Shown here in pieces: positions 40-1,180 of a stretch of DNA of 34,970 nt (within the stretch, counting starts at the first letter, position 1; each line of letters begins with the position of its first letter). Made by a program: the position numbers and the translations under genes. The notes under the pieces are model-generated. The model saw nothing but the letters and a program-made list of their open reading frames with translations. It was not told the origin of the DNA and searched no databases. Origin of the DNA: a virus (lineage: Duplodnaviria > Heunggongvirae > Uroviricota > Caudoviricetes); IMG/VR virus record IMGVR_UViG_2529292908_000012; one strand, given 5' to 3'.

Positions 40-375
40 TTGTTGGCAGATAGAAAAAAGCGTTTCCGTAAAAATCCGTCTCTTGGAATGGGCGACTGGC
101 GATTCTTTATTAGTGAGCCGGGAATTATTTCAATTGAGGATTTACCACCTGGCTGGGGGTTACTTCACGTTGTTAACGGAAGAGTACGGAAAGTACATGG
201 GTGGCCCAAGGGTAATTGCTGTTGGGGTAATCCTGACGATAAGCCATTTACTGGAAATAAGCAGGTTGAATGCGATTACATGTTATCTGCATTAAGGCGC
301 ATGGAGTTGAGAGGGCACCTTAATGAAATATATGACGGTGTAATTGTTAATAAGAAAGAAGGAAACGCGGCATGA
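40..375 (+). CDS. Hypothetical phage protein, possibly 5'-partial (frame open to window start)
   Basis: ORF in frame 1 with no upstream stop back to position 1; stop overlaps the start of the next gene; no family recognised. Confidence 0.4.
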   Translation: MLADRKKRFRKNPSLGMGDWRFFISEPGIISIEDLPPGWGLLHVVNGRVRKVHGWPKGNCCWGNPDDKPFTGNKQVECDYMLSALRRMELRGHLNEIYDGVIVNKKEGNAA

Positions 376-1100
376 TCACTATTACCAAAGAGCGACTACT
401 GACAATCAAGCAGTGGCGCGAAACATACGGACCTGGTAGCAACGTTGTACTGCCAGCAGAAGAAGCGGAAGAACTGGCACGGATTGCACTGGCATCGCTG
501 GAAGCAGATCCAGTTAAACGAGTTAACTCAGATCAGATGCGCCGAGTCTGCTTAGAAGCTAATCGCCATTTAGATAAATATGACGCGATGGCGAAAGAGG
601 TAAATAAGTTGCTTGGACGCATCGCCCCGCCAGCGCCGGTAGTGCCGGAAGAAGCAACTCCGGAAAACGTAGAAATGCTCTCTGGCTATGTTTCCACGTA
701 CAAATTAACCGATAGCGAGCGCGATATTGCTGCCGAAATATGGAACGCCTGCCGCGCCGCCATGCTTCAGTCCGGAAACTTTCGGGAAAATAAAGATTCG
801 TCAACCAATAATTTTCGGAAAATCCCGGAAGCGTCAACCAGCTCTCCGGTAACTCCGGATGGTTGGATAAGCTGTAGTGATCGAATGCCAGAAATGGGAG
901 AGCGACAATACTATGTGTTAGCAGCTGACTTTAAAAACAACTACCCACCAAGCATCCCCAACACTCAGGTCGGCGTATATGGCGACTGGTTTAATGATGG
1001 CAATCCCACTTGGGATGACGGTGATGGCGAAGACCTGCATCTCAAAGAAGTAACCCACTGGATGCCGCTACCAGAACCGCCGAAGGAGGTACGCCAATGA
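372..1100 (+). CDS. DUF551-like nin-region phage protein (copy 1)
   Basis: 242-aa ORF; C-terminal ...HWMPLPEPPKEVRQ and central LQSGNFRENKDSSTNNFRKIPE segment shared with the 20792..21436 paralog. Confidence 0.8.
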   Translation: MITITKERLLTIKQWRETYGPGSNVVLPAEEAEELARIALASLEADPVKRVNSDQMRRVCLEANRHLDKYDAMAKEVNKLLGRIAPPAPVVPEEATPENVEMLSGYVSTYKLTDSERDIAAEIWNACRAAMLQSGNFRENKDSSTNNFRKIPEASTSSPVTPDGWISCSDRMPEMGERQYYVLAADFKNNYPPSIPNTQVGVYGDWFNDGNPTWDDGDGEDLHLKEVTHWMPLPEPPKEVRQ

Positions 1101-1180
1101 CCTAGCCTGAAGCATTTGCAATTGTAGTGGCTGCCATTTCGATCGCACTGATTGTTTTTGCGATTTGCCGCTGGGGGTAA
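1097..1180 (+). pseudogene. Small hydrophobic peptide gene with in-frame amber codon at codon 3 (degenerate paralog of 20712..20795)
   Basis: ATG overlaps DUF551 stop (ATGA), SD aggagg upstream; reads ATG ACC TAG then PEAFAIVVAAISIALIVFAICRWG, versus intact MNWPEAF... in copy 2. Confidence 0.4.

Follow-up and report, generated by a model that had tools for sequence, protein, structure and literature searches.

The C-terminal DUF551 domain behaves as a portable module carried on mosaic phage proteins, for example on the Ea22 variant V2 of Stx phages (PMC10834534, PMC4776307). The closest described counterparts of the locus analysed here, which lies at the left edge of a 34,970-nt stretch of phage DNA (hereafter the window), are found in phages 933W (L0142-L0139 and hokW/sokW) and POCJ13 (gp79-gp74). 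In both, gene order and orientation are as at the left edge of the window, and the genes converge on an LPD38/LPD5 gene near attR. In 933W an intact small peptide gene (MTWPEAFANVGTVMAVVLVVYSICRWR) is followed by hokW/sokW and L0136, whereas the lineage of the window lacks these elements and its peptide gene is amber-mutated. The YfdS protein of the E. coli K-12 prophage CPS-53 has the C-terminal DUF551 domain in common with the window, but the N-terminal halves are unrelated; no homologous small ORF was found in the yfdS region of CPS-53, where yfdT comes next.

The overall reading proposed here, to which a probability of about 0.8 is assigned, is that the left edge of the window is the right-arm end of one 933W-like prophage, that the small peptide coupled to DUF551 is a real gene, and that the left copy of this gene would be dead through an inherited amber mutation at a Dcm site. 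The features on which this reading draws are as follows.

40..375, plus strand: C-terminal remnant of a PHROG 9263 / 631 gene, a 111-aa ORF (PHROG 9263, E 2.1e-85, profile positions 120-230 of 230).
372..1100, plus strand: DUF551 copy 1, 242 aa, stop TGA at 1098-1100 (Pfam PF04448, E 7.8e-20, residues 164-238); identical to RefSeq WP_000628749.1 and annotated in FORC_069.
754..889, plus strand, against 21105..20970: linker patch common to both DUF551 copies (blastn 90%, E 2e-48; columns invariant among 20 DUF551 proteins).
1050..1123, plus strand, against 20842..20769: second patch common to both copies (blastn 93%, E 2e-27).
1083..1090, plus strand: Shine-Dalgarno sequence AAGGAGGT, 6 nt 5' of the small-ORF ATG, inside the DUF551 codons PP(K/Q)EV and kept in all alleles collected.
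1097..1180, plus strand: copy 1 of the 27-codon small membrane-peptide ORF, a pseudogene with an amber TAG as codon 3 (1103-1105) and Val for the invariant Gly11.
1101..1105, plus strand: CCTAG, a mutated form (at base 1104) of the CCTGG Dcm site present in ACC-TGG alleles.
1187..1378, minus strand: truncated Panacea-like ORF, 63 aa, WP_000481379.1 (PHROG 3658, E 6.8e-39; also PHROG 1281), convergent on the left module.
1502..9856, minus strand: giant LPD38/LPD5 virion protein gene, 2784 aa, which closes the late operon of the same prophage and converges with the left module.
20171..20495, minus strand: mok/hokD toxin gene and sok antisense RNA, downstream of copy 2 (Pfam Hok/Gef, E 1.4e-23; Rfam sok, 110 bits).
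20712..20795, minus strand: intact copy 2 of the 27-aa peptide gene, MNWPEAFAITGVAMAITFLVYVICRWG, with an ATGA overlap with the stop of DUF551 copy 2.
20792..21436, minus strand: DUF551 copy 2, which follows the O/P-like genes, DUF1627 and DUF977 in the early-right operon (Pfam, E 1.1e-20).
33807..34970, plus strand: integrase gene intD of the same prophage.

The left module is thus shorter than an earlier note on this DNA had drawn it. Positions 372..1180 hold the DUF551 gene and the small ORF, as described there, but 40..375 is a separate PHROG 9263 remnant rather than part of DUF551. The PHROG 9263 / 631 gene is frameshifted in the lineage of the window; in FORC_069 no CDS is annotated at the equivalent of 40..375, and a frameshifted pseudogene lies just upstream of it. 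Other genes adjoining in the right arm are likewise pseudogenes. DUF551 copy 1, the final large gene of the right-arm accessory operon of the phage, is present as an identical protein on 114 contigs. Its stop overlaps the small ORF as ATGA (ATG at 1097-1099), and the ORF continues with ACC (1100-1102) and TAG (1103-1105) to a TAA at 1178-1180, reading M T * PEAFAIVVAAISIALIVFAICRWG. The in-frame amber that the earlier note had placed at codon 3 is therefore confirmed by direct reading of the sequence. A scan of 1-1700 for promoters and terminators gave counts at chance level. On the opposite strand, a run of four or five G residues at about 1221-1225 toggles the Panacea-like ORF between 63 and 91 aa.

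The two DUF551 genes are diverged paralogs, as had been claimed. Both match the full 68-position PF04448 domain well above its gathering threshold of 22 bits (71.9 bits for copy 1, 74.7 bits for copy 2), and their proteins are 34% identical (E 5e-33; the RefSeq start for copy 2 is an ATG that gives 194 aa, 20792..21376). The modules lie on opposite strands, ~19.7 kb apart within the window. The view that they are not a simple inverted duplication also held, since DNA likeness is confined by blastn to the two patches listed above; the paralogy is patchy yet far above chance. The second patch takes in the DUF551 C-terminus and the ribosome-binding site and runs on through codon 9 of the small ORF. 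Both DUF551 genes are mosaics: their N-terminal parts differ, while the linker that follows and the DUF551 domain at the C-terminus are common to the two, the linker patch being a mosaic recombination joint. In one recombinant, L158, the crossover lies inside the equivalent of the second patch. An origin of L158 by intramolecular inversion between the inverted DUF551 ends was considered and rejected, the DUF977 gene being retained in its normal position; L158 is instead a cassette exchange in the nin-region slot. A PDB sequence search with DUF551 copy 1 gave no match at E up to 1, and an AlphaFold2 model built from a 20-sequence alignment was unusable (mean pLDDT 38, pTM 0.17).

The opposite orientation of the two copies and their merely patchy similarity are what would be expected if the left module belonged to another prophage, adjacent or recombined, next to the one that carries copy 2, as the earlier note had proposed, and the right-arm operon does resemble the 'early-left' block of another lambdoid phage in its Ea22-like and antirepressor genes. 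However, four collinear blocks of 99.9-100% identity align the window with a single prophage of E. coli FORC_069. That prophage is ~62 kb long, 933W-like and inserted in ynfG, and the window differs from it by three internal deletions. The 3' part of ynfG and intD lie at one end of the FORC_069 prophage and an 84-nt 5' fragment of ynfG at the other. In O104:H4 strain 2011C-3493, as in FORC_069, both DUF551 copies lie between the halves of one split ynfG with a single integrase. On the excised circle, intD would sit upstream of the left-edge operon and read in the same direction. The left flank might alternatively have proved to be core chromosome, but leftward of the window edge FORC_069 carries ~4.7 kb more phage DNA and only then ynfG/ynfF.

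The same arrangement is seen in phage genomes. In POCJ13 (classified in Sepvirinae), 933W and FORC_069, the giant LPD38/LPD5 gene converges on an Ant-DUF4752-Ea22-DUF551 operon, which in FORC_069 and 933W also contains a TraR gene; the Shigella phage POCJ13 is 100% identical to the window over 1000-1200, TAG included. Because the FORC_069 blocks are collinear, because one ynfG is split around one integrase, and because POCJ13 and 933W have the same convergent layout, the left 1.2 kb forms the distal end of the accessory operon in the right arm of a single 933W-like (Sepvirinae) prophage in ynfG, and the rest of the window is the same prophage. A second prophage is, on this evidence, extremely improbable. 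Phages of the 933W-like type normally have two DUF551 modules, one in the slot after the replication genes and one at the end of the antirepressor/Ea22 accessory operon, facing the giant LPD38 tail gene.

Judged by its conservation, the small ORF that follows both DUF551 genes seems to represent a genuine gene family, as yet without a name. The family was defined by 27 sense codons, an ATG that overlaps the preceding stop (ATGA or GTGA) and AGGAGGT ~6 nt upstream, with Trp3 and the invariant Gly11 within MxWP(E/D)A...G...(I/L)(C/F)RWG as the residue criterion. Copy 2 has all of the structural features as well as Trp3 and Gly11. Copy 1 retains the length, the overlap and the ribosome-binding site, but has a stop at position 3 and Val at position 11, and is accordingly a pseudogene of the family. 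All of the 33 distinct intact 84-nt alleles collected are exactly 27 codons long, and all 33 have stops in both other sense frames. The ATGA overlap and the strong ribosome-binding site are conserved across alleles, the stop codon alternates between TAA and TGA, and substitutions preserve the hydrophobic core (GRAVY 2.1-3.0). When the 33 alleles are pooled, pN/pS is 0.34 for the frame of the ORF and 1.0-1.6 for the two remaining sense frames. It is similarly low, at 0.36, for the antisense frame whose third-codon positions coincide with those of the ORF, and this frame is open in 32/33 alleles; substitution rates by themselves therefore leave the strand undecided. The choice of strand follows from the conservation of start, ribosome-binding site, stop and length, whereas the antisense frame has neither a conserved start nor a conserved end.

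That antisense frame is one reason to ask whether the 27-codon ORF is a gene at all, or whether its conservation reflects an RNA element, an antisense ORF or recombination linker DNA, in which case the amber would be meaningless. It is also the case that scans against Pfam, NCBIfam and PHROG assigned the peptide to no family (sub-threshold matches only, driven by transmembrane composition), and that the annotations of 933W, VT1-Sakai and RefSeq mostly omit the ORF. The peptide motifs were not found in the supplements of an EHEC Sakai small-gene Ribo-seq paper, and a full-text literature search with the peptide strings found no paper. Against a non-coding origin stand the fixed length, start, ribosome-binding site and alternating stop, the preserved hydrophobic core, and the persistence of the ribosome-binding site and ORF as a cassette at loci that have lost the DUF551 domain or carry the end of another gene in its place. 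An RNA signal was not apparent: folding of both peptide regions gave no excess stability (z +1.7 and +0.1), and Rfam over the whole window matched only sok and STnc100, with nothing in 1-1500. A non-genic origin of the ORF is accordingly unlikely.

The product is predicted to be a micropeptide that spans the inner membrane once, with the acidic N-terminus MxWP(E/D)A probably outside, the C-terminus CRWG probably inside, and the hydrophobic core and Gly11 between them. With AGGAGGT in the last DUF551 codons and the ATGA overlap, ribosomes that end DUF551 could restart on the peptide. The peptide resembles the type I toxins Hok, TisB and DinQ and the regulatory micropeptides MgtS and AcrZ in its size (27 aa), its one predicted transmembrane helix, its positive C-terminal end and its prophage location, but searches of Pfam, NCBIfam and PHROG revealed no sequence similarity to these families. 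Type I toxins have their own promoter and an antisense RNA, whereas the peptide appears to be coupled to the gene upstream; neither a type I toxin signature (Pfam, NCBIfam, PHROG) nor a promoter of its own with an overlapping antisense RNA (Rfam) was found for it. Rfam placed sok only at the hokD locus (20321-20495), and the left-edge module, unlike copy 2, has no mok/hokD-sok partner.

Across 185,579 genomes, the strict peptide pattern was found only in Escherichia and Shigella, and in two ~400-nt contigs labelled Xanthomonas and Acinetobacter that were taken to be contamination. Hok/sok adjoins the peptide in 33/91 contexts. We consider it rather probable that lambdoid and Stx phages of Escherichia/Shigella have here a genuine, unnamed family of membrane micropeptides, carried as a self-contained mini-cassette often directly upstream of hok/sok or xis-int, and that the left copy is a natural knock-out, created at a Dcm hotspot and then disseminated along with the right-arm module. 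Our guess as to the role of the peptide would be that of a small membrane protein with an accessory function, in many cases linked to hok/sok or xis-int.

The origin of the left allele is suggested by its sequence context. The earlier note had derived the amber from a single TGG to TAG change. Measured against copy 2 this does not hold, as the two differ at codon 2 as well as at codon 3. The true relatives of the left allele read ATG ACC TGG (933W, for example), and relative to these a single G to A transition at 1104 has converted Trp3 (TGG) to TAG. Intact ATGACCTGG alleles are found in 27/113 sampled loci and in 933W. The sequence CCTGG is carried only by Thr2 (ACC) alleles, and the amber was seen only on that background. 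Coulondre and Miller reportedly found amber hotspots at Dcm sites (CCWGG) in lacI, arising via deamination of 5-methylcytosine. The change in the window falls exactly at the G that pairs with the methylated C of CCTGG; because the ancestral ACC-TGG forms this site, deamination of the opposite-strand 5-methylcytosine is the likely cause, as far as context can indicate. The idea that the amber was selected to end the minus-strand ORF, through the CTAG palindrome, was considered but not retained: the ORF in question is a truncated piece of Panacea, and the G4/G5 run switches its length.

The region of the amber allele (1060-1185) is at least 99% identical in 48 of 5,426 complete E. coli genomes. 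Among the 13 matches listed, 10 are at 100%, and the three at 99.2% were checked and carry TAG. In the IMG/VR contigs with the same allele body, TAG is present in 16/16 and TGG in none. Only one origin of the amber is evident, with spread of the allele by descent and recombination. Gly11, invariant in 33/33 intact alleles, is Val in the amber allele. Three changes were found within the amber lineage (S14L, A22V and one 1-nt insertion that shifts the frame), none of them synonymous, a number too small to test statistically for relaxed constraint. The identical amber allele occurs in 20/26 loci, and the frame beyond TAG is open to the normal stop in most copies. Apart from the amber, the decay of the dead allele thus appears slight. 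The left peptide gene is best regarded as an inherited null allele, a view that the pseudogenes adjoining it in the right arm also favour, and DUF551 copy 1 itself is intact. Once formed, the null allele would have spread with a successful right-arm module and would now be decaying.

An open frame behind the TAG, in an allele that is widespread and present in the viable phage POCJ13, could also mean that the TAG is sometimes translated, whether by natural UAG read-through or by a suppressor tRNA of the host, and that the left copy supplies the peptide at a down-tuned, low level. Near-identical copies are equally explained by a young allele, however, and neither the loss of Gly11 nor the two replacements and one frameshift found within the lineage suggest a maintained product. 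An ARAGORN scan that covered the window and stretches of the FORC_069, O104:H4 and POCJ13 phages (the FORC_069 and O104:H4 prophages in full) gave no tRNA gene, and with it no suppressor with a CUA anticodon. To our knowledge, wild E. coli normally lack amber suppressors. Low-level expression through the amber is very unlikely on these grounds.

The amber also leaves a two-codon reading frame, AUG ACC UAG, that resembles the bar minigenes of lambda and might cause peptidyl-tRNA drop-off when the operon is transcribed. Its anatomy fits, with the Shine-Dalgarno sequence separated by a 6-nt spacer from an AUG, one sense codon and a stop (1097-1105), beyond the att of a lambdoid phage as in bar. 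The frame in the window differs in its origin, a nonsense mutation within a longer ORF, and in its use of ACC, a common codon with an abundant tRNA, whereas the AUA of bar, like AGA, is rare. No sign was seen of selection for a minigene over plain gene loss. The shortest minigenes do lead to the greatest accumulation of peptidyl-tRNA, but minigene effects, including the bar phenotype, are confined to Pth-defective cells and are absent in the wild type (PMC2490762). A minigene effect of this kind is hence hardly credible here, and an inherited null allele is the preferred reading of the left copy.

What appeared to be a junction of two prophages is the standard architecture of a single phage, and the amber would be an inherited pseudogene mutation that bears no sign of suppression or recoding; the finding is real but ordinary. 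The Dcm-site context would provide a simple account of how the amber arose on the ACC-TGG background. The conserved 27-aa membrane peptide, predicted to be translationally coupled to the gene upstream, is carried by clinically important Stx and O104:H4 prophages, and the reference annotations of 933W, VT1-Sakai and RefSeq mostly lack it. A natural null allele in about 1% of complete E. coli genomes may serve as a ready-made control for functional studies and, if the interpretation is correct, phages naturally matched 'with' and 'without' the peptide would be available for finding its role.

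The left edge of the window was read directly, confirming the earlier note's observation of a DUF551 gene with a coupled peptide gene carrying an amber stop at codon 3, together a diverged paralog of a second module. DUF551 copy 1 (372..1100, + strand) encodes a 242-aa product, residues 164-238 of which cover the full length of Pfam DUF551 (71.9 bits; cutoff 22); the product of copy 2 (20792..21436, on the other strand) also matches DUF551 in Pfam (74.7 bits). The copy 1 stop codon (TGA, 1098-1100) overlaps the ATG at 1097-1099 that starts an 84-nt frame closing at TAA 1178-1180, and this ATG is preceded, at 6 nt, by a strong Shine-Dalgarno sequence (AAGGAGGT, 1083-1090). 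The frame begins ATG ACC TAG CCT GAA... and translates as M T * P E A F A I V V A A I S I A L I V F A I C R W G. On the copy 2 side, the ATGA-overlapped ORF (20712..20795, - strand) encodes the intact peptide, MNWPEAFAITGVAMAITFLVYVICRWG. DNA similarity between the modules is confined to two patches (754-889 vs 21105-20970, 90%, E 2e-48; 1050-1123 vs 20842-20769, 93%, E 2e-27) and the DUF551 proteins are 34% identical (E 5e-33); the paralogy is therefore real, diverged and mosaic. The interval 40..375, previously counted with the module, is an ORF of its own; it represents the C-terminal part of a PHROG 9263 gene, which carries a frameshift in the window's lineage. In the literature, DUF551 is described solely as a portable domain, carried by Ea22 variant V2 and YfdS (PMC10834534, PMC4776307). 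No solved structural relative of DUF551 was found by sequence search, and structure prediction gave an unusable model (pLDDT 38).

The favored explanation, with a probability of about 0.8, is that copy 1 is a DUF551 gene standard for the right arm and that the micropeptide gene coupled to it is a null allele. This allele would have arisen at a Dcm hotspot and then been inherited and spread by recombination; only the peptide at the left slot would be lost, with no further functional consequence.

The left module had been attributed to a second prophage, adjacent or recombined. Over window 1-1500, identity to the E. coli FORC_069 chromosome is 99.9%, and the whole window maps there as four collinear blocks at 99.9-100% (1-11627, 11622-14441, 14438-18667 and 18666-34970); this makes the window a single prophage carrying three internal deletions (~2.5, 15.2 and 5.2 kb). 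Relative to the FORC_069 ynfG prophage, these deletions take out hok/lom, the block of head and terminase genes, and the Q/nin block. The junctions (11622-11627, 14438-14441, 18666-18667) are clean, overlapping by 2-6 bp. Given the deletions, either the window prophage is defective or the window is spliced. The FORC_069 element (~62 kb) is flanked by two ynfG halves, with the ynfG 3' part and the integrase intD at one end and an 84-nt ynfG 5' fragment adjoining ynfF at the other. O104:H4 strain 2011C-3493 has the identical arrangement, with both DUF551 copies within the element. Shigella phage POCJ13 (Sepvirinae) has the same right arm, 100% identical over window 1000-1200 including the TAG, and in phage 933W the arm comprises L0142-L0139, then sokW/hokW and L0136, facing L0135 and L0134. 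As both copies lie inside one split ynfG and the same arm recurs in POCJ13 and 933W, the second-prophage proposal is unsupported, and we regard it as highly improbable; the diverged mosaic paralog and the real amber codon stand. What the left edge shows is mosaicism of the ordinary kind for a 933W-like prophage, plus a small ORF that has become a pseudogene.

Features of the window, in window orientation
Left (only the operon's end is in the window), + strand: accessory operon with antA/B, Ant, BRO, TraR, DUF4752, Ea22-like, DUF551 copy 1, small ORF
1187-1378, - strand: truncated Panacea-like ORF, G run at ~1221-1225
Next rightward, - strand: late genes, the last being the giant LPD38 gene (1502..9856)
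Further right, - strand: lysis genes, doc, hokD/sok, 34-aa ORF, intact peptide, DUF551 copy 2, DUF977, DUF1627, P-like, O-like, cII, cro
18531-18757, - strand: STnc100 sRNA match (78 bits), early-right region
18911..19228: HTH ORF, near hokD/sok and STnc100
19279..19773: doc toxin ORF, near hokD/sok and STnc100
20171-20495, - strand: mok/hokD and sok antisense RNA (Rfam, 110 bits for sok), early-right region
20572-20676, - strand: small hydrophobic 34-aa ORF (MSDDISLAMEGALAVIAVVGVYCLVVFLMDRLGN, RefSeq WP_001278450.1), between the intact 27-aa peptide and hokD
Rightmost, + strand: cI, kil, recE, gam, bet, exo, int

This gene order places copy 2 after the replication genes, within the early-right operon; copy 1 is at the end of an operon convergent with the late operon. 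From the coordinates, the right arm of the excised circle would lie directly downstream of int across attP, in the same reading direction, as the counterpart of lambda's region beyond att. The LPD38/LPD5 polyvalent virion protein (2784 aa, 1502-9856, - strand), product of the window's largest gene, contains a HEWFH zinc-protease-like motif. The 34-aa ORF at 20572-20676 (- strand) had no family match. For the Panacea-like ORF, five Gs (window, FORC_069) give 63 aa and four (O104:H4) give 91 aa; the 91-aa form, on which PHROG 3658 appears to be built, runs antisense through the dead peptide ORF.

DUF551-linked loci were gathered from IMG/VR, species-representative genomes and reference phages, yielding 33 distinct intact 84-nt alleles, each of exactly 27 sense codons. 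All 33 have the overlapping start, an AGGAGGT site and a stop (TAA or TGA) at the same position, and in all 33 the other two sense frames contain stops. Pooled pN/pS over these alleles was 0.34 in frame vs 1.04 and 1.62 for the remaining two sense frames. The antisense frame sharing third-codon positions has a similar value (0.36) and is open in 32 of the 33, so the strand was called on conservation of the start, ribosome-binding site, stop and length. RNA folding of the peptide regions gave no stable structure (z +1.7 and +0.1), no Rfam family matched there to offer an alternative explanation, and searches of Pfam, NCBIfam and PHROG with the peptide gave nothing above noise. On this pattern of conservation the small ORF appears to be a genuine gene, as yet unnamed, and the alternative, that the 27-codon ORF is not a gene, is unlikely. 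The consensus runs from MxWP(E/D)A through a hydrophobic core, in which Gly11 is invariant, to (I/L)(C/F)RWG; the core hydropathy (Kyte-Doolittle 2.1-3.0) fits a predicted single transmembrane helix with positive charge at its C-terminal end.

The peptide cassette is independent of DUF551: it is kept when the domain has an internal deletion (...GWISCSERMPDD|RQEVNQ*), when the gene ending a few codons upstream is an unrelated one, and in 933W after L0139, whose end reads ...NIEQKVNQ*. At IMG/VR loci L015, L027 and L045 and in 933W (L222, 2762-2845), the DUF551 domain is deleted or the upstream gene unrelated, yet the 27-codon ORF and its ribosome-binding-site leader are intact. Among 91 distinct contexts, the upstream end is DUF551-type in 58, and a hok gene lies <=0.9 kb downstream of the peptide ORF in 33. 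Annotation is sporadic: "putative prophage protein" in E. coli 042, 45-aa versions from an upstream start (e.g., WP_423274943.1), and none in the 933W and VT1-Sakai records. No homologous small ORF was found beside K-12 yfdS. In species-representative genomes the strict peptide pattern occurred only in Escherichia and Shigella. E. coli-type alleles on tiny contigs of Xanthomonas pisi (431 nt) and Acinetobacter idrijaensis (369 nt), one exactly the 933W peptide and the other with a DUF551-type upstream end, are most likely assembly contamination. No paper mentioning the 27-aa peptide was found in the literature.

The amber lies in CCTAG (1101-1105); the ancestral ACC-TGG makes CCTGG, a Dcm methylation site, and such sites are established mutational hotspots. 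If the methylated cytosine of the opposite strand were deaminated, TGG would become TAG, and the sequence context suggests this origin. Among the IMG/VR matches listed, all amber copies are on an ATG ACC background, with none among the Ser, Ile or Asn codon-2 alleles, which have no Dcm site. CTAG is palindromic, and the one G-to-A change thereby also supplies the stop codon of a minus-strand ORF (1102..1230). One recombinant (L031/L158) combines a copy-1-type DUF551 and the amber N-terminus with a peptide body of the copy-2 type, hok following, and has its crossover inside the conserved 74-bp patch at 1050-1123, which shows how cassettes pass between slots. In L158 (IMG/VR contig 3300029722_000071, 4119-6116) the cassette occupies a nin-region slot. 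It is very improbable that ATG ACC TAG acts as a bar-like two-codon minigene; the anatomy fits, but ACC is a common codon. Moreover, minigene effects require Pth-defective hosts (PMC2490762).

The TAG is an inherited allele. Identity of at least 99% to window 1060-1185 was found in 48 of 5,426 complete E. coli genomes, including O104:H4 outbreak strains; among the matches listed (13 of the 48), ten were at 100% and three at 99.2%, with TAG confirmed in all three. IMG/VR contigs with the left allele body had TAG in 16 of 16 and TGG in none. Among 120 IMG/VR stretches in the matches listed, taken regardless of third codon, an estimated ~8 are amber: 1 in 113 new loci, plus 7 re-used loci assumed to be the amber set, four of them read directly. 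The nearest intact relatives are MTWPDAFAIVGVAMSIALIVFAICRWG and MSWPEAFAIVGVAISIALIIFSICRWG.

Leaky read-through or suppression of the amber is quite improbable. No tRNA gene was found in the window or the fetched FORC_069, O104:H4 and POCJ13 loci, which excludes a phage-borne suppressor. Position 11 is Val in the amber allele vs the Gly invariant in all intact alleles; the three changes found within the amber lineage comprise two replacements (S14L, A22V), one frameshift (a 1-nt insertion) and no synonymous change; and the surroundings are eroded (a gene upstream with a frameshift, Ea22 and antA/B genes in fragments, the truncated Panacea-like ORF). These are signs of decay. The intact copy 2 peptide is still present in the same phage. 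What is modestly new is the 27-aa peptide family, conserved and mostly missing from annotations, together with a null allele of it that occurs naturally.
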